Part shown: positions 1,263 through 62,812 of the stretch, piece by piece
How the letters are laid out: each line of letters opens with the position of its first letter
Position numbering within the stretch: the stretch's first letter is position 1
Notes under the pieces: model-generated
What the model saw: only the letters and a program-made list of their open reading frames with translations
Told to the model about the DNA's origin: nothing
Database searches by the model: none
Source of the DNA: Mustelus asterias
Lineage: Eukaryota
Reading direction: 5' to 3'
Assembly: GCF_964213995.1 (NCBI RefSeq)
Contig: NC_135803.1
Location: forward strand, 140,306,001 to 140,370,000
Length of the DNA stretch: 64,000 nucleotides
Position numbers and translations under genes: made by a program

Positions 1263-1600
1263 CTGCCATTTGCCTTTCTTTTAAAACCACTGGCTGCACC
1301 AACATGCTTACCTTCAGCGACTGGTGTACTCAAGTGTCATTGCACATTCCCCCTCAATTTATAGCCATTCAGATAATAATCTGCCTTCCTATTTTTACTA
1401 CCAAAATTGATATCCTCACATTTATCTCCACTATACTGCATCTTCCAAGCATTTGCCCACTCAGCTTGTCCAAATCATATGGAAGCGTCTCTGCATCCTC
1501 CTCCACTCAACTTTGTGTCGTCTACAAATTTGGAGATTTATACATTTAGTTCCCTCATCTAAATCAATTATATTGCAAATAGCTGGGATACCTGCAGTAC

Positions 1601-1830
1601 AGCAAGTAGTCTTACAACACCAGGTTAAAGTCCAACAGGTTTATTTGGCAGCAAAAGCCACTAGCTTTCAGAGTGCTGCCCCTTCGTCAAGGACTCACCT
1701 GACGAAGGGGCAGCACTCCGAAAGCTTGTGTGGCTTTTGCTACCAAATAAACCTGTTGGACTTTAACCTGGTGTTGTGAGACTTCTTATTGTGTTTATCC
1801 CAATCCAACGCCGGCATCTCCACATCATGA
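1601..1830. mobile_element. Non-autonomous palindromic PLE-terminus element (two inverted pLTR ends)
   Basis: 1604-1690 is the reverse complement of ~1700-1788; both match the 3' end of the PLE at ~8585-8682; 13-bp TSD ATACCTGCAGTAC at 1588-1600 and 1831-1843. Confidence 0.85.
1696..1730 (+). ncRNA. Minimal type I hammerhead ribozyme motif (PLE-type)
   Basis: CAC-CTGACGA-A-GGGGC/AGC/ACTCC-GAAA-GCTT-GTG: CUGANGA and GAAA cores, stem I CAC/GTG, stem II with one mismatch, palindromic AAGCTT stem III. Confidence 0.7.
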
Positions 1831-1889
1831 ATACCTGCAGTACTCCAGTCATCACAGCCTGCCACTCAAAAAAAGACCTGTTTATTCGA

Positions 1890-4029: not shown

Positions 4030-5745
4030 AAGTATTAGCTTGAGTTTGAGGTCTCACCAATGCCCTACACAACTGTAGCAAAACATCTCTACTTCGATAT
4101 CCTATCCTCCTTAGAATAAACATTCAATTTGTCTTACTAATCACTTGGCACATTGGCATACTAACTTTGTGTTTCATGTACAGCAAACCCAGATCTTTAA
4201 TTTATTTCCATTTAATATGCTGCTTTTCTATTCTTCCTGCCAAAGTGGACAAGTTCATATTTTCCCACATTATACCCCATCTGCCAAATTTTTGCCAACT
4301 CATTTAACCTATCCATATCCCACTGCAGATTCCCTTATGCCCTCCTCACAACTTACTTTCCTCCCCATCTTTGCATCAGCAAATTTAGCAACCACACACG
4401 ATTCTTTCATCCAAGTCGCTGATATAAATTGTTAATAGTTGAAGCCCTAACACAGATCCCTGTGGCACTCCACTCGTCACATCTCACCAACCCGAAGAGG
4501 CATCTATGCCTACTCTGTTTTCTATTAACTAACCAATCCTCTATTCATGCGACTCCCTATACAGTGAGCTCTTATTTTGCATAGTAATCTTTGATGTCAC
4601 ATTTTGTCAAATGCCTTCCGGAAATCCAAGCACAACACATCCACAGATTCCCCATCATCCACATTATTTATTACTTCCTCAAATATTTCCAATAAATTAG
4701 TCACACAATTTATTTTTCACAAAACAAATGTTGATTTTGCCTGATTGGATTGAGATGTTCTGAGTGCTTTTTTATAACCCCCTTAATAACAGATTCCAAA
4801 ATGTTTCCTATGACATATTAAGCATACTGGCCTGCAGTTTCCCGCTTTCTGCCTCCCTCCTTTCCTGAACAGAGGGTCACATTTACTATTATCCAATCTG
4901 ATGGAACCTTTCTGGAATATAGGGGATTGTGGAAAATGAAAACCAATGCATCCGTTATCCCAGCAGACACTTCTTTTAAGGTTCCTGGACTTGTCAGCCT
5001 TTGGTTCTAATAATTTTCTTAGTCCACTTTCCCTGCAATTGCTTTCAGTTCTACTATCCCCTTCACCTCCATTTCAAAATTATTTTGGGGATGTTACTTT
5101 TATCCTCTACAGTGAAGGCAGGCACAAAAACTGTTCAATTCATTTCCTTATTTTCCATTATTAATTCCCCATTTTCATTTTCTGGAAGGCCACACCTTTC
5201 TCCTTTTCAAATACTTGTAGAAACACTTACTTTTTAAAAATATTTCTAGCTAGCTTTCTCTCGTATTCTAATTCCTCCCTCCTTGGTATTTTTTTAGTCA
5301 TTCTTTGCGGTTCTTCATATTTTGTCCAATCTTCTGACCTGTCACTTATCTTTGCTGAATTCTATGCTTATTCTTTCAATTTGACAGGAACTTTAACTTC
5401 CTTAGTTAGCCAGATGGTGCACCCTTCTCTTAAGGGTCTTGCTTTCCCACTGAAACACATCTATTCTGAAATATCTCCCGAAATGTCTGCCACTATTGAC
5501 CAATCCCCTAACCTAACTTGCCAAGTCATTTAGCCAGCTCTGCCTTCATGCCCTCACAGTTGTCCTCATCGAATTTTAAAATGCTAGTCTTAGATCCACT
5601 CCTATCACCTCAAACTGAATGTGAAATTCAATCGTATGAATAATCACTGCTACCAAGGAGTGCCTTTACTATGAGGTCATCAATCCTATCTCATTGCACA
5701 TTATCAGATAGACCACAGCCTGTTCTCTGGTTGGCTCTAGAACAT
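4030..5745 (-). mobile_element. CR1 LINE ORF2 fragment (host of the PLE insertion, continues at 8683-10160)
   Basis: Minus-strand decayed RT motifs (SGVPQGSVLG, KFAD, DFRKAFDK). Confidence 0.65.
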
Positions 5746-8393
5746 AGACACCGCAAACTGCCGGCTCCAAGTGGAGAGGATCTCCAAGAAGATCGCGCAT
5801 ATCGACACAGACATCAAGTTTCTACAAAGATGCAAGAAAGCAGACAAAATACCGAAAGGACTACGGATCACGAACCCACTCAGGTCAACCTATAACACAG
5901 ACTACGCTGAGAGACTTTGCCGTCGCACCTCTCTCACCCTCCTCAACCACCTCATACACCAACTCTACAGCAAACGCTGCAGCCTGGAAACCAAGATAGA
6001 GTCCATATTCTCAACTTGCGCTCAGGATGCAGACCAGCTGCGAAACTCTGCCAAGCAGACGAGACAAAGGAACTACACCATCTACATGCACACCAAGAAC
6101 AGAAAACTTGAGAAACTCGGCATCACCACCAGCAGCAACCAAGCCTCCCCCGGTACCACAGTAGAAAACAGTACCACTGCAGGGAAGTCCATTGTCAACT
6201 TATCGGACTACACACTTCAACCAGATGAAATCGAAGTTCTCAGCCGAGGGCTTAATTTTTGCCCCACCACCAAAATAGACCCCATCAGTCTCGCAGCAGA
6301 CACAGAAGAATTCATCAGGCGAATGAGGCTGAGGGAGTTCTTCCACAAACCCCAAGAGGCCAACAACGAACACAATGGGACAGCCAATGAACCGGAACAG
6401 CCGACAGAGAGATCCGCAGTGCACCCGAAGAGGAAAGAGTCAAATTGGACTCCTCCGGAAAGCCGCTGCCCTCGACTTGACATGTATGCCCAAGCCGTCA
6501 GGAGGTGCATCAACACCAAATTCATCAGCCGCACTCACAAGACAGCCCCGAACATCACCCAAGCACAACGTAACGCCATCCACGCTCTCATGACCAACCG
6601 CAACATTGTCATCAAACCAGCAGACAAAGGAGGGGCCATCGTCATACTGAACAGAACGGATTACTGCAAAGAGGTGTACCGACAACTAAACAACGAGGAA
6701 CACTACAGACAGTTACCTGCAGATCCGACCAAAGAACACACCCGTCAACTCAACACTCTGATCAAGACCTTTGATCCGGACCTTCAGAACACCCTCCGTG
6801 CTCTCATCCCACGTACTCCCCGCGTTGGAGATCTCTACTGCCTCCCGAAGATACACAAGGCAAACACACCCGGCCGTCCCATCGTATCGGGCAATGGGAC
6901 CCTGTGCGAGAACCTCTCCGGCTATGTCGAGGGCATCCTGAAACCCATTGTACAAAGAACCCCCAGCTTTTGTCGCGACACGACGGACTTCCTACAGAAA
7001 CTCGGCACACATGGAGCAGTTGAACCAGGAGCGCTCCTCGTCACAATGGATGTCTCGGCACTCTACACCAGCATCCCCCATGACGATGGCATTGCTGCAA
7101 CGGCCTCAGTGCTCAGCGCCAACAACTGCCAGTTTCCAGATGCAATTTTACATCTCATCCGTTTCATCCTGGACCACAATATCTTCACCTTCAACAACCA
7201 GTTCTTCATCCAGACACACGGAACAGCCATGGGGACCAAATTCGCACCTCAATATGCCAACATCTTCATGCACAGGTTCGAACAAGACTTCTTCACCGCA
7301 CGGGACCTTCAACCGATGCTATACACTAGATACATCGATGACATTTTCTTCCTTTGGACTCATGGTGAACAATCACTGAAACAACTATATGATGACATCA
7401 ACAAGTTCCATCCCACCATCAGACTCACCATAGACTACTCTCCGGAATCGGTTGCATTCTTGGACACACGCATCTCCATTAAGGACGGTCACCTCAGCAC
7501 CTCACTGTACCACAAGCCCACGGATAACCTCACGATGCTCCACTTCTCCAGCTTCCACCCTAAACACGTTAAAGAAGCCATCCCCTACGGACAAGCCCTC
7601 CGTATACATAGGATCTGCTCGGATGAGGAGGATCGCAACAGATGCCCTCATAAGAACAGGATATGGCGCTCGACTCATTGATCAACAGTTCCAACGCGCC
7701 ACAGCGAAAAACCGCACCGACCTCCTCAGAAGACAAACACGGGACACAGTGGACAGAGTACCCTTCGTTGTCCAGTACTTCCCCGGAGCGGAGAAGCTAC
7801 GGCATCTCCTCCGGAGCCTTCAACATGTCATTGATGAAGACGAACATCTCGCCAAGGCCATCCCCACACCCCCACTTCTTGCCTTCAAACAACCGCACAA
7901 CCTCAAACAGACCATTGTCCGCAGCAAACTACCCAGCCTTCAGGAGAACAGTGACCATGACACCACACAACCCTGCCACAGCAACCTCTGCAAGACGTGC
8001 CGGATCATCAACACAGATGCCATCATCTCACGTGAGAACACCATCCACCAGGTACACGGTACATGCTCTTGCAACTCGGCCAACGTTGTCTACCTGATAC
8101 GCTGCAAGAAAGGATGTCCCAAGGCATGGTACATTGGGGAAACTATGCAGACGCTGCGACAACGGATGAATGAACACCGCTCGACAATCACCAGGCAAGA
8201 CTGTTCTCTTCCTGTTGGGGAGCACTTCAGCGGTCACGGGCATTCGGCCTCTGATATTCGGGTAAGCGTTCTCCAAGGCGGCCTTCGCGACACACGACGG
8301 CGCAGAGTCGCTGAGCAGAAACTGATAGCCAAGTTCCGCACACACAAGGACGGCCTCAACCGGGATATTGGGTTCATGTCACACTATTTGTAA
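5746..8393 (+). pseudogene. PLE polyprotein (RT + Cys-rich linker + GIY-YIG endonuclease) with a frameshift at ~7640
   Basis: ORF 5771-7681: KPADKG, GRPIVS, MDVSALYTSI, GTAMG, RYIDD. ORF 7452-8393: CHSNLCKTC, VVYLIRC...WYIGET...R..EH...E...GLN. Frames switch at RNR|DALIRTGY. No ATG at the 5' end (ORF track starts at GTG). Confidence 0.92.
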
Positions 8394-8586
8394 CCCCCAC
8401 AGAGTTTCACTGGCTGTCTTGTCTGGAGACAATACACATCTTTTTAGCCTGTCTTGACGCTCTCTCCACTCACATTGTTTTGTTTCTTAAAGACTTGATT
8501 AGTTGTAAGTATTCACATTCCAACCATTATTCATGTAAATTGAGTTTGTGTCTTTATATGCTCTGTTTGTGAACAGAATTCCCACT

Positions 8587-8623
8587 CACCTGAAGAAGGG
8601 GCTTGCAGCTCCGAAAGCTTGTG
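8587..8623 (+). ncRNA. Minimal type I hammerhead ribozyme motif in the PLE 3' pLTR
   Basis: CAC-CTGAAGA-A-GGGGC/TTGCA/GCTCC-GAAA-GCTT-GTG; intact cores, stem I CAC/GTG, palindromic stem III. Confidence 0.75.
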
Positions 8624-9641
8624 TGGCTTTTGCTACCAAATAAACCTGTTGGACTTTAACCTGGTGTTGTTAAACTTCTTACTGGCTCGAGAACATGCAG
8701 CTCTAAGAAACTGTCCTGAAAATACGATGAACTCATCATCCAGGATTTCCTCTGCCACTCTGATTTGAACAATCTATAACTCATGATTATCATTGTACAT
8801 TTCTCACAAGCCATTATTTCCTCTTCTATACTCCATCCTACAGCGTGGTTCCTGTTAGAAGGCCTATAAACCAACCTTAAGTGAATCTTTACATTTTCTA
8901 CTTCTCATTTCTACCCAAACTGATTCTGTATTCCGATGTCCAGAATGGAGGTCATCTCTCTTGACTGCACCAATGTCATCCTTAATTAACAGAGCTTACC
9001 CTCCACCTTTTCCTAGCTTCCTGTTCTTCCAAAACGTCATATACCCTTTAACGCTCCGGTCCCAGCCTTTGCCATTACAGAGATGTGGCTGCAAGATGGC
9101 AATCAGATAATACATTTTTATTTTTGTGCTCTCAATTGATCTGTTTTGTTAAGAATGCTACGCAAATTCAGATGCAGAGTCTGTATTTTTCAACTTGTTG
9201 GTGCACTCTGCCACGCTCTGACCACTTTTCTTCTCATGCCTTGTCTTTATTTAATTTACCACATTATCCCAAACCTGATCTCTTTGCTCCACTATTGCCT
9301 AGTTATATGACTCAAGAACACTGGTTCAGCACAGTTTAGATGAAGACTGCCCGAATTATATAGTTCCCAACTTCCCCAATGCTGGTGCCAGTGCCTCATG
9401 AATGGAAATCCATTTCTCCCACAACAATTTTTGAGCCACTCATTTAACTCTATAATCTGATTTACCGTATGCCAATTTTCTTGTGGCCAGTTTATTGCCT
9501 TTGGAGGTTCTGGTTTTTAATTTATCCCCTAGCTGTTCATACTCCCTCAGGAAACTCTTCCTTAGTTTCACCCATGTCATTGGTACCTACGTGGAGCACA
9601 ACTATTGTATCATCCCTTTTCCACTGCAAGTTCCTCTCCTA

Positions 9642-9944
9642 GCAAGGAGTCTCACAACACACCAAGTTAAAGTCCAACAGGTTTATTTGGTAGCAAAAGC
9701 CACTAGCTTTCAGAGCGCTGCTCCTTCGTCAGGTAAGTGGGAGTTCTGTTCACAAACAGGGCATATAAAGTATAACATGATTTTGAGCATATAAAATATA
9801 AACAGAACTCCCACTTACCTGACGAAGGAGCAGCGCTCCAAAAGCTAGTGGCTTTTGCCACCAAATAAACTTGTTGAACTTTAACCTGGTGTTGTGAGAC
9901 TTCTTACTGTGTTTACCCCAGTCCAACGCCGGCATCTCCACAAC
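9642..9944. mobile_element. Non-autonomous palindromic PLE-terminus element
   Basis: ~9645-9750 is inverted relative to ~9800-9905, with an AT-rich spacer; TSD AGTTCCTCTCCTA at 9629-9641 and 9945-9957. Confidence 0.85.
9701..9735 (-). ncRNA. Minimal hammerhead ribozyme motif (intact core)
   Basis: Minus strand TAC-CTGACGA-A-GGAGC/AGC/GCTCT-GAAA-GCTA-GTG; the partner arm (9816-9850, +) has GAAA changed to AAAA. Confidence 0.68.
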
Positions 9945-10179
9945 AGTTCCTCTCCTACCCAGGGCAGATGCCCTGAATCCTGGCACTAGGCCAGCAACGC
10001 AGCCTTCTGGATTCCCACTCTTGGCTGCAAAGAACTTATCTATCGCCCTGGCCACACTGTCCGCTATTATCACTACATTCCAGTAACTTCCCCACTTGAA
10101 TGGCTTCCTGTACTCTGGTGCCATGGTCAGTTTGCTCATCCACCTTGCAGCCCCCACTTTTATCCATACAACTTGCAAG

Positions 10180-11191: not shown

Positions 11192-11524
11192 GGGGCGGCA
11201 CGGTAGCACAGTGGTTAGCACTGCTGCTTCACAGCTCCAGGGTCCCGGGTTCGATTCCCGGCTCGGGTCACTGTCTGTGTGGAGTTTGCACATTCTCCTC
11301 GTGTTTGCGTGGGTTTCCTCCGGGTGCTCCGGTTTCCTCCCACAGTCCAAAGATGTGCGGGTTAGGTTGATTGGCCAGGTTAAAAATTGCCCCTTAGAGT
11401 CCTGAGATGTGTAGGTTAGAGGGATTAGCGGGTAAATATGTGGGGGTAGGACCTGGGTGGGATTGTGGTTGGTGCAGACTCGATGGGCCGAATGGCCTCC
11501 TTCTGCACTGTAGGGTTTCTATGA
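11192..11524 (+). mobile_element. HE1/V-SINE-like SINE, young full-length copy
   Basis: GGCGGCACGGTAGCACAGTGGTTAGC A-box region, GGTTCGATTCCC B-box; nearly identical to the copies at 17326 and 26656. Confidence 0.92.
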
Positions 11525-13895: not shown

Positions 13896-16205
13896 CAACA
13901 TACAAGATTATGAAGGGAATAGATGATAGAAGCAGAAAAGTTGTTTCCACTGGCAGGTGAAACTAGAACTAGAGGGCATGGCCTCAAAATAAGGGGGAGC
14001 AAATTTAGGACTGAATTGAGGAGGAACTTCTTGACCCAAAGGGTTTTGAATCTGTGGGATGCTCTGCCCAGTGAAGCAATTGAGGCTACCTCATGTTTTT
14101 AAGGCAAGGATAGATAAATTTTTGAACAGTAAAGGAATTAAGGATTATGGTGAGCATGCAGGTAAATGGAGTTGAGTCCATAAAATGATCAGCCATAATC
14201 TTATTGAATGGCGTAGCAGGCTCGAGGGGCCAGATGGCCTACTCCTGCTCCTCGTTCTTATGTTCGTATGTTATGTTCTAAAAGCATCTATAGATAGGTG
14301 AAGAGAAAAAGACTGAAGACAAATACAGGTCCCTTACAGTTAAAAAGTAATGGGCAACAAAGAGGTGACACTCCAACGGAACAAATCATAGAATCTACAA
14401 TGCAGAAGGAGGCCATTTGGCCCATTAAGTCTGCACCAACCACAATCCAACCCAGTCCCTATCCCCATAACCCCATGAATACTTTGGATCTGACTTCACT
14501 AAGGAGGACAGAAATGATCTTCCAGAAATACTAGGGGATAGAGGGTCTAGTATGAAGAACTAAAAGAAATCCTTAGTCAGGAAATTGTACTATGGAAATT
14601 GCTGGAATTAAAACCCAATAAGTTCTCAGGGCCTGATGCTCTGCATCCCAGAGTACTCAAGGAAGTGGCCCTAAAAATAGTGGACGCATTGGTGATCGTT
14701 TCCCAGCATTCTATAGACTCTGTAAGAGTTGCAGTGGATTGGAGGGTAGTTAATGTCACCCCACTTTTTAAAAAAGGACGGAGAGCAAACCGGGAATTAC
14801 AGACTGATTAGCCTGATGATATCTGCGGTGGGGAAAATGCTGGAGTCAATTCTTAAGGATGCAATAACTGAGCATTTGGAAAGCGGAGACAGGATTGGTC
14901 CAAGTCAGCATGAATTCACTTAAGGGAAATCGAGCTTGACAAATCTTCTGGAATTTTTTTGAGGATGTGACCAGTAGATGTTGTGTATCTAAACTTTCAA
15001 AAGGCTTTTGACAAGGTCCCACACGAGATTAGTGAGCAAAATTAAAGCTCATGGTATTGGAGATAGTGTATTGATGTGGATATGGAACTGACTGGCAGAC
15101 AGGAAGCATAGTGTGGGAACAAACAGGTCCTTTTCAGAGTGGCAGGCAGTGACTAGTGGGGTACCACAGGGTTCAGTGCTGGGGCCCCAGCTATTCACAA
15201 TATACATTGATTTGAACAAAGAAATTGAATGCAATATCTCCAAATTTACAGATGACACTAAGCTGGGTAGCAGTGCGTACTGTGAGGAGGATGCTAGGTG
15301 ATTTGGACAGGCTGGCTAAGCAGAAAAAGTAAGAAGTCTCACAACACCAGGTTAAAGTCCAACAGGTTTATTTGGTAGCACACAAGCCACTAGCTTTCAA
15401 GTGGACAAATACAATATAATGTGGATAAATGTGAGGTTATCCACTTTGGTGGCAAAAACAGGAAAGAAGGTTATCTGAATGGTGGCAGTTTAGTAAAAGG
15501 GAAGTGCAACGTAACCTGGTGTCATGGTGGAACAGTCGCTGAAGGTTGGCATGCAGCTACAGCAGGCGGTGAGGAAAGTTAATGGCATGCTGGCCTTTGT
15601 AGCAAGAGGATTTGCATATGGGGTAAGGATGTCTCGCTGCAGTTATGCAGGGTCTTGTTGAGGCCACACCTTGAGAATTGTGTGCAGTTTTGGTCTCGTA
15701 GTCTGAGGAAGGACATTCTTGCTATTGAGGGAGTCCAGACTGATTCCTGGAATGGCAGGACTGACATATGAAGAAAGACGGGATCGACTGGGCTTGTCCT
15801 CACCTGGAATTTAGAGGAATGAGGGGATCTCATAGAAAAATAAAAAATCCTGATGGGACTGGCTAGATGCGGGAAGAATGCTCCCGATGTTGGGGAAGTC
15901 CAGAACGAGGGGTTACAGTCTAAGAATGAGTAAGCCATTCAGGACTGAAATGAGGAAGAACTTCTTCACCCAGAGTTGTGAACCTCTGGAATTCTCTACC
16001 ACAGAAAGCTCGTTGGGGCCAGTTTGTTCAATATGTTCAAGAGGAAGCTGGACGTGACCCTTGTGGCTAAAGGGATCAAGGGGTATGGAGAGAAAGCGGG
16101 AGTGGGATACTAAAAATGGATGATCAGCCATGATCATATTGAATGGTGGTGCAGGCTCGAAGGGCCAAATGGCTTATTCATGCACCAATTTTCTATGTTT
16201 CTATG
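13895..16205 (+). mobile_element. CR1 LINE ORF2 and 3' UTR fragments
   Basis: GPDALHPRVLKE, WRVVNVTPLFKKG, SGVPQGSVLGP, SKFTDDTKL; TTTCTATG tail at ~16190-16205. Confidence 0.85.
15327..15400 (-). mobile_element. Truncated PLE pLTR end inserted in CR1
   Basis: AAGAAGTCTCACAACACCAGGTTAAAGTCCAACAGGTTTATTTGGTAGC...CCACTAGCTTTC is the reverse complement of the PLE terminus; cut at the hammerhead. Confidence 0.8.
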
Positions 16206-17325: not shown

Positions 17326-17655
17326 TCATAGAAATCATAGAAACCCTACAGTGCAGAAGGAGGCCATTCGGCCCATCGAGTCTGCACCGACCACAATCCC
17401 ACCCCACATATTTTACCCGCTAATCCCTCTAACCTACGCATCCCAGGACTCTAAGGGGCAATTTTTAACCTGGCCAATCAACCTAACCCGCACATCTTTG
17501 GACTGTGGGAGGAAACCGGAGCACCCGGAGGAAACCCACGCAGACACGAGGAGAATGTGCAAACTCCACACAGACAGTGACCCGAGCCGGGAATCGAACC
17601 CGGGACCCTGGAGCTGTGAAGCAGCAGTGCTAACCACTGTGCTACCGTGCCGCCC
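17326..17655 (-). mobile_element. HE1/V-SINE-like SINE, young copy
   Basis: Near-identical reverse complement of 11192-11524. Confidence 0.92.
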
Positions 17656-26655: not shown

Positions 26656-27004
26656 AATAGAAATAATAGAAACCCTACAGTGCAGAAGGAGGCCATTCGG
26701 CCCATCGAGTCTGCACCGACCACAATCCCACCCAGGCCCTACCCCCATATCCCTACATATTTACCCGCTAATCCCTCTAACCTACGTATTTCAGGACTCT
26801 CAGGGGCAATTTTTAGCATAGCCAATCAACCTAACCCGCACATCTTTGGACTGTGGGAGGAAACCGGAGCACCCGGAGGAAACCCACGCAGACACGAGGA
26901 CAATGTGCAAACTCCACACAGACAGTGACCCAAGCCAGGAATCGAACCCAGGTCCCTGGAGCTGTGAAGCAGCAGTGCTAACCACTGTGCTACCGTGCCG
27001 CCCC
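26656..27004 (-). mobile_element. HE1/V-SINE-like SINE, young full-length copy
   Basis: Near-identical to the 11192 and 17326 copies. Confidence 0.92.
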
Positions 27005-51649: not shown

Positions 51650-51835
51650 GATGAAGAGACATCAAATAAAGGGCGACCCGCGGGCCAATCTTCATCGACA
51701 CAAACCCCCCGCACCGAAAGCTGTAAACACCGCCAGCGCTGCCCCTCTGTGACCTCACACACGACGCCTCACAGCCAATCGAATCACCAGGTTTACCAAC
51801 GTCACAATGGATCATTTGCATGTCACGTGCCGACA
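51650..51835 (-). promoter_or_regulatory. BTG-like gene proximal promoter
   Basis: CCAAT boxes (~51684, ~51775), CRE half-site TGACG on minus (~51800), E-box GTCACGTG (51822-51829), CpG-rich. Confidence 0.6.
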
Positions 51836-51870
51836 CGGGGGGGGAGGGTTTTTGCCCTTCCCCCCACCGC

Positions 51871-52036
51871 CAGTCTCCGCCCCCTCCTCCCCAGTCTCCA
51901 CCCCCACCTCCCCAATCTCCGCCTCCTCCTCTCCAGTCCCCGCCCCCTCCTCTCCAGTCCCCGCCCCCTCCCCCCCAATCTCCGCCTCCTCCTCTCCAGT
52001 CTCCGCCCCCTTCTCCAGTCTCCGCCCCCTCCTCCT
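51871..52036. repeat. 21-bp GC-rich minisatellite (~8 copies)
   Basis: Unit CAGTCTCCGCCCCCTCCTCYC with variants. Confidence 0.9.
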
Positions 52037-62254: not shown

Positions 62255-62812
62255 AAGTCTTAACAACACCAGGTTAAAGTCCTACAGGTTTATTTGGTAG
62301 CAAACACCACTAGCTTTCGGAGCGTGCTGCTCCTTCGTCAGGTGGAGTGGGAGTTCTGTTTACAAACAGGGCATACAGAGACACAAACTCAATTTACAGA
62401 ATAATGATTGGAATGTGATACTTTACAGCTAATCAAGTCTTAACGGTACAGACAATGAGTGGAGAGAGCATTAAGTACAGGTTAAAGAGATGTGTATTGT
62501 CTCCAGACAGGACAGCTAGTGAGATTTTGCAAGTCCAGGCAAGTTGTTGGGGGTTACAGATAGTGTGACATGAACCCAAGATCCCGGTTTCGGCCGTCCT
62601 CATGTGTGCAAAACTTGGCTATCAGTTTCTGCTCAACGACTCTGTGTTGTCGTGTGTCGTGAAGGCCGCCTTGGAGAACGCTTACCCGAAGATCAGAGGC
62701 CAAATGCCCGTGACCGCTGAAGTGCTCCCCAACAGGAAGGGAACAGTCTTGCCTGGTGATTGTCGAGCGGTGTTCGTTCATCCATTGTCATAGCGTCTGC
62801 ATGGTTTCCCCA
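62255..62812 (-). mobile_element. 5'-truncated PLE (GIY-YIG C-terminus + pLTR), same family as 5746-8682
   Basis: ORF 62554-62781 is nearly identical to the C-terminus of ORF 7452-8393; same pLTR terminus. Confidence 0.92.
62307..62345 (-). ncRNA. Minimal hammerhead ribozyme motif
   Basis: Minus strand CCAC-CTGACGA-A-GGAGC/AGCAC/GCTCC-GAAA-GCTA-GTGG; intact cores, stem I CCAC/GTGG. Confidence 0.75.

Follow-up and report, generated by a model that had tools for sequence, protein, structure and literature searches.

A short head-to-head PLE insertion in Mustelus asterias and an excess of a non-parental G at arms that begin on the first base of the hammerhead

The window, a 64,000-nt stretch of the Mustelus asterias genome (contig NC_135803.1, positions 140,306,001 to 140,370,000), carries a 230-bp non-coding insert (1601-1830) that is devoid of any ORF and consists of two ends of a Penelope-like retroelement (PLE) facing away from a common centre. 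Is such an object a member of a small self-propagating family or a product of PLE integration, and, in the latter case, by which steps is it made? The features that bear on this question are listed in Table 1, in window coordinates.

The insert is a single insertion of two short PLE leader copies joined 5'-to-5'. The 13-bp duplicates at its borders are identical to each other, and the same sequence occurs once in a paralog of the host repeat (L132), which represents the empty site. The minus-strand arm pairs over 1604-1689, at about 90%, with the plus-strand arm (up to 1787), leaving a centre of 10 nt and, on the right, 43 nt of unpaired tail; the RNA is predicted to fold into one long hairpin (-152 kcal/mol, z = -21). 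Thus, a preliminary description, made from the sequence letters, was right about the 230-bp insertion within a perfect 13-bp duplication and about the head-to-head layout, and the long hairpin that it envisaged for the transcript holds as a predicted fold. The host of the insert (1263-1600 and 1843-1890) is an old, decayed piece of a LINE-like RT that lies on the minus strand, a label read from its translation; compared with the paralog, it is missing 12 nt directly ahead of the TSD. The surrounding DNA contains many copies of a tRNA-like SINE family (953-1263, 1889-2238, 11193-11524, 17333-17655, 26662-27003 and others), which we take to resemble the shark HE1-type SINEs, and, at 51834-52036, a C-rich tandem repeat with a 21-nt unit.

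Table 1. PLE-derived features of the window.
Feature	Position	Strand	Remarks
Left TSD	1588-1600		13 bp; identical to 1831-1843; present once in paralog L132
Inverted arm without tail	1601-1691	-	PLE leader that begins about 43 nt short of the unit end and extends inward as far as the hammerhead core
Non-parental G	1692	+	stands directly before the inferred +1 base; may derive from the cap, an assignment that is ambiguous for this copy
Sense arm	1693-1787	+	begins where transcription is inferred to start
Minimal type I hammerhead motif	1699-1732	+	motif scan against the descriptor of PMC4209133
PLE tail	1788-1830	+	about 43 nt; final part is the parent ORF start codon, ATG 1827-1829
Right TSD	1831-1843		13 bp; identical to 1588-1600
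Near-complete parent PLE copy	5743-8684	+	RT (PF00078), C-terminal GIY-YIG (PF01541), 3' pLTR with hammerhead
Second head-to-head insert	9642-9944		13-bp TSDs 9629-9641 and 9945-9957; 50-nt centre
Single short PLE end without tail	15330-15398	-	no TSD found
Single 5'-truncated PLE copy without tail	62255-62812	-	no TSD found

The parent element of the two arms is represented within the window itself. Both match the pLTR of the near-complete PLE copy; they differ from each other in subfamily alleles. This long copy is frameshifted, has neither leader nor tail, and is 91.5% identical over 2,981 nt to another genomic locus (L296); none of nine long PLE copies has an unbroken ORF, the longest reaching 737 aa. 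At 19 other genomic loci, the tail sequence continues into the N-terminus of the ORF, so the tail end corresponds to the start codon. A TSD was sought and not found for the long copy or for the two single stubs in the window. The second head-to-head insert, which the preliminary description had recognized as having the same layout and its own TSD, indeed has both, along with an empty-site paralog (L386); it differs from insert 1601-1830 in its centre and in the GAAA of its plus arm, which reads AAAA.

As judged from its translation, the parent element has a CX4CxxC linker in front of the endonuclease and two cysteines between GIY and YIG, and thereby shows the features given for Neptune and Nematis, a CX2-5CxxC linker and two cysteines in the GIY-to-YIG interval (PMC8557442). 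Several hallmarks of EN+ PLEs are present as well: RT and, at the C-terminus, GIY-YIG in one ORF, both domains being detected in the window copy; a putative minimal hammerhead in the pLTR, by match to the descriptor; an inverted 5'-truncated copy at the 5' end; a tail at one end only, 30-40 nt in such elements and 43 nt here; and a TSD of variable length.

The hammerhead itself is identified by motif. The first six nucleotides of the sense arm (1693-1698) form the 5' strand of stem I and are followed by the core (1699-1705), an extra A, stem II, a GAAA and a palindromic AGCT, with a predicted cut after 1727; the published minimal type I motif likewise has one base added behind A9 and is palindromic at positions 15.2-16.2 (PMC4209133). 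The same scan bears out the proposed intact core of the plus arm and the change of CTGACGA to TTGACGA in the minus arm, that is, C3 to T; the minus arm lacks the 5' strand of stem I, too. The further suggestion that the motif be checked against covariance models gave a negative result: an Rfam scan produced no hammerhead match at the gathering score or at E<=10, so that the ribozyme call rests on the match to the descriptor of PMC4209133. The weak Rfam matches were rejected as generic hairpin matches. Folded alone, the plus arm is no more stable than shuffled sequences (z 0.68), and its minimum-energy form is not a hammerhead.

The position of insert 1601-1830 among the PLE insertions of the genome is apparent from a random sample of ten 100-kb blocks (1.0 Mb), which contains 63 PLE clusters: 21 inverted, 21 single with a tail, 20 single without a tail and one without an end. 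Arm lengths, expressed as d, the distance to the unit's 3' end (the ATG occupying d4-d2), range continuously from d56 to beyond d1571, and the insert is the short end of this continuum. Extrapolation to the 3.68-Gb genome yields about 230,000 inserts, about 77,000 of them inverted, and about 37,000 as short as the one examined here (10 per Mb). In one sampled block (C11 85243-87734), a longer inverted PLE copy seems to have received a mini-palindrome in its pLTR, of which about 15 nt are duplicated.

The outer ends in the random sample fall into two groups about 40 nt apart, d1-9 (45 of 86), at the ORF start codon, and d24-61 (41 of 86, mode 43), some 40 nt earlier. These ends match the pair of sites, one on either side of the tail, at which the RT starts in PAc, an element whose protein, a predicted dimer, cuts and extends both target strands (PMC11167929), so priming from both strands is likely here as well. 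The tail-less end, found on 20 single inserts, is thus a start site in its own right. At the tail end, the TSD and the element overlap by at least 2 nt in 27 of 41 inserts, against a chance expectation of 16% (3 of 44 inserts, with negative overlap, were set aside); this excess makes it likely that priming uses short pairing, a difference from PAc, for which non-homologous priming is reported (PMC11167929).

The two arms of an insert mostly share subfamily alleles, in 23 of 24, 34 of 36 and 25 of 26 comparisons, where shuffling gives means of 8.0, 10.0 and 11.9, and they often end together: at most 3 nt separate the 5' ends in 17 of 31 pairs, where shuffling yields a mean of 2.6; the figure of 17 is inflated by alignment breaks at subfamily differences; the safer, reference-free test finds loops of at most 10 nt in 13 of 31 centres.

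Taken together, the TSDs, the two fixed outer ends, the variable junctions, the parent ORF and the excess of a non-parental G before a fixed base, described below, support an account in which each of the two sites is primed once, from opposite target strands, which yields the two-arm layout with its TSD. The enzyme of the element would cut both target strands with a stagger of 12-13 nt, and each target 3' end would anneal, by 1-5 nt, to RNA at one of the two start sites. Both cDNAs would usually copy one RNA, or one source, to the same end, the sense arm likely running off the 5' end of a capped mRNA, where the cap would cause the RT to add a C. The 3' ends of both cDNAs would then be joined via microhomology or end joining and filled in. 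We consider it probable that insert 1601-1830 was made anew in this way, by two primings and with a cap-terminated sense arm.

The strongest competitor is a fold-back, in which one molecule, a cDNA or, as PMC3846280 proposes, an antisense template, doubles back on itself, serves as its own primer and is copied into the second arm. It predicts equal arm lengths and shared alleles no less than two primings do, and the junction palindromes of Adineta have been interpreted along these lines (PMC3846280). However, the loops at the centres are 0 nt in two and 1 nt in three of the 31 cases, too tight for a fold-back primer, and the tail-less end also occurs on inserts with no partner arm at all. Moreover, either arm can be the longer one (9 pairs have the longer arm on the tail-less side and 5 on the tailed side), and in some inserts the arms carry alleles of different subfamilies (at one site, 6 of 25 inserts with the recurrent junction; L202; and insert 1601-1830 itself). 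Given, in addition, that the cap-like G points to a sense template, we regard a fold-back as unlikely.

That G precedes the homologue of position 1693, where the plus arm starts and, with it, stem I of the hammerhead. In long copies, a TATA-like box precedes this homologue by 31 nt (box at 8553 and homologue at 8584 in the parent copy of the window), and the base in front of the homologue is parental C in 7,479 exact copies. Base counts were made by hand on the first 100 listed matches of each set, which come from the first contigs. When the base before +1 is not C (405 matches), it is G in 66, T in 25 and A in 9; one base upstream, in the control (525 matches), there are 15 G, 13 A and 72 T, and one base downstream (396 matches), with 32 G, 42 T and 26 C, there is no G excess. 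A replicate on other core variants, with no overlap with the first set (7,969 matches), gives 71 G, 15 T and 14 A. For G versus A against the upstream control, Fisher's p is 0.0004 in the first set and 0.004 in the replicate.

The G-bearing ends are true 5' ends in 18 of 19 PLE loci of the first G set, from which two non-PLE loci (L245 and L246) were dropped, and in 20 of 20 of the second, in which 29 of all 30 loci begin at the +1 base; they occur in several subfamilies. By eye, about 15 of 38 have no possible source for the G in the partner arm or the TSD, and over half are ambiguous. The copy under study belongs to the ambiguous ones, since G 1692 could originate from the minus arm if 1690 is an insertion. 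In one two-arm insert (L060), both arms are complete to the +1 base with a single G between them. Arms ending at +1 amount to about 3% (1 of 32 in the random sample), most arms running further upstream.

Full-length L1 inserts carry an additional G where the capped 5' end was copied (PMC11702581), and the non-parental G at this position is what a capped sense mRNA would be expected to leave; it likely records the cap and hence the transcript start. A 3' splice site at the edge of the hammerhead was set aside because the ends join unrelated flanks, not a common upstream exon. As to promoters, the pLTRs of Adineta contain TATA and Inr-like motifs (PMC3846280), Penelope of D. virilis has an internal, TATA-less promoter (PMC2377424), and the box found here upstream of the +1 homologue is only TATA-like. 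Against the cap reading, a large TATA-less subfamily (L304-L333) shows no G excess, with 26 G, 18 A and 56 T in the first 100 of 1,005 matches (p = 0.81).

These observations lead to a broader proposal that we favour by a modest balance of probability, namely, that the PLEs of this clade make "strong-stop" cDNAs: a dimeric enzyme would use a staggered cut to prime from each strand, at two fixed positions of the leader; the template would be a capped sense mRNA that begins with the six stem I bases, and thousands of genomic scars would record the cap as an additional G.

Some further loci show unusual joints around the leader. At L249/L250, L267, L337 and L355, the filler at the junction repeats the opening bases of the leader in several short copies, as though the RT had returned to the RNA 5' end more than once. 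At L275, L276, L281 and L291, the leader, together with 100-170 nt from the start of the ORF, is directly joined to another pLTR end, likely by a template jump, and one contig of a related organism (X3) contains a similar joint with the extra G. Two single inserts, L032 (C1 12928-13030) and L043 (C2 22482-22582), begin on the predicted hammerhead cut or beside it (d101 and d102); two cases are too few to speak for or against inserts made from cleaved RNA.

Long inverted repeats are unstable. The short stubs could accordingly have formed after insertion, through central deletion and arm-to-arm conversion of longer palindromes, with the G supplied by junction microhomology or by a G-bearing source; the antisense arm is G-rich near the junction, and a few private variants are common to both arms (L178, L233 and L224). 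Such an origin seems improbable, more so than a fold-back, given that single inserts free of any partner arm begin at the same base (L252, L265, L373, L378, L385 and L387) and that G-ends are found in several subfamilies whose long copies have C. Besides, later instability should be expected to destroy perfect centres and not to create them.

There remains the choice that the preliminary description had offered between a retrozyme- or MITE-like family mobilized by the PLE enzyme and a recurring product of extreme truncation during PLE integration. An initial search by likeness returned at least 40 similar copies of 220-240 bp, roughly one third of 30 loci having the same junction; the apparent single-junction family was rejected as an effect of ranking by likeness to the query. 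Because of this bias, the search was replaced by consecutive matches to an exact pattern, two hammerhead cores facing outwards within 20 nt, which has 1,181 matches in the genome and one in the control. The first 50, taken in the order in which they follow one another on C1, include 44 genuine two-arm inserts; the other six have no arms (L211, L213, L219, L236 and L238) or a broken left arm (L173). There are 40 distinct junctions among the 44, exactly one tail in 43, and a TSD in 35, of 8-16 bp (12-13 bp in 24 of these). The commonest junction known, the one that had dominated the search by likeness, recurs exactly in 29 copies, 2.5% of the 1,181, in both orientations relative to the tail (17:12, p = 0.46 versus 1:1) and with several subfamilies mixed; two +1-ending cDNAs that pair across one G.G mismatch would predict this very junction, in both orientations. 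Of the two readings offered, the diversity of junctions, the continuous arm lengths and the mixed make-up of the recurrent junction support the truncation product.

A palindromic unit that is itself transcribed and re-inserted by the PLE enzyme would account for the many similar copies and the recurrent junction; pLTRs can act in trans (PMC3846280), and in a longer insert from a random block (L105, C8 44371-44876) the arms have an identical internal inversion, so that either one was copied from the other or a rearranged source gave rise to the two. But with 40 junctions in 44 inserts, a recurrent junction confined to a small and mixed minority, and one hammerhead per strand that is masked in the hairpin where minimal hammerheads require a same-sense partner (PMC4209133), this possibility is already largely refuted and very unlikely.

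Non-LTR retrozymes resemble the insert in being non-coding, derived from PLE pLTRs and hammerhead-bearing, but they form head-to-tail arrays with same-sense hammerheads (10.64898/2026.07.22.740005), whereas the insert is head-to-head; neither head-to-tail units nor at least two same-sense motifs are found in it. Four contig sets from related organisms contain neither starts nor ends of molecules and so speak neither for nor against a discrete RNA of the retrozyme type. MITEs have a fixed TSD length and a uniform internal sequence, unlike the variable TSDs and junctions seen here, and inverted repeats at both termini, where the insert has an unpaired tail on one side and no terminal repeat there. 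The insert almost certainly does not belong to a retrozyme or MITE family of its own, and the self-propagating alternative of the preliminary description is not supported. With no TATA-like box upstream and with its hammerheads enclosed in the hairpin, the stub is probably a dead end.

What it does resemble has been in print since at least 2013: an inverted pLTR, a one-sided tail, a TSD and junction palindromes are all published (PMC3846280; PMC8557442), and insert 1601-1830 is a real but ordinary PLE insertion stub of this known layout. A close likeness is to the EN+ PLE Pen_Av of Adineta vaga (PMC3846280; scheme in PMC8557442), with head-to-head 5'-truncated copies, a one-sided tail of 30-40 nt, TSDs, junction palindromes and a TATA plus Inr-like pLTR motif. 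Unlike Pen_Av, the insert contains no ORF whatsoever and its kind is present in very high copy number, and, in place of the antisense self-priming proposed for Pen_Av (PMC3846280), the evidence here favours two primings on capped sense RNA. Dual minimal hammerheads on opposite strands, 100-700 bp apart, have been reported from Schistosoma and ascribed to truncated PLEs (PMC4209133); they share the minimal type I motif and the opposite orientation with the present inserts, from which they differ in coming, in the accessible text, without a TSD or junction analysis. PAc, a Poseidon element of Anolis, likewise has two start sites bounding the tail; they lie inside the ORF, whereas the sites here are in the leader, end at the ATG and show a 1-5 nt overlap, and the hammerhead is dispensable for PAc insertion in vitro (PMC11167929). 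The CX4CxxC linker of the parent element is absent from Poseidon. As in the twin priming of L1 (PMC11702581), there appear to be a second priming from the other target end, a discrete TSD, joins by microhomology and an extra G at complete 5' ends; the second cDNA of L1, however, copies the adjacent upstream part, and here both copy the same stretch, hence the palindrome.

What this analysis adds is the excess of a non-parental G at arms that start on the first base of the hammerhead. In a search of the open literature, we found no cap-derived G or strong-stop product described for PLEs. PMC8557442 calls the formation of the inverted pLTRs and tails of PLEs undefined, and PMC3846280 leaves open whether the template is sense or antisense. 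The insert, ordinary as an object, is valuable as a record of mechanism: the cap-like G at a fixed base, the two fixed start sites and the zero-loop centres together make a testable model of PLE replication. If the strong-stop proposal is true, the transcription start of these elements would have been mapped from DNA alone, the question of sense versus antisense template would be decided, the inverted pLTR and the tail would be explained in one step, and cutting by the ribozyme would remove the cap.
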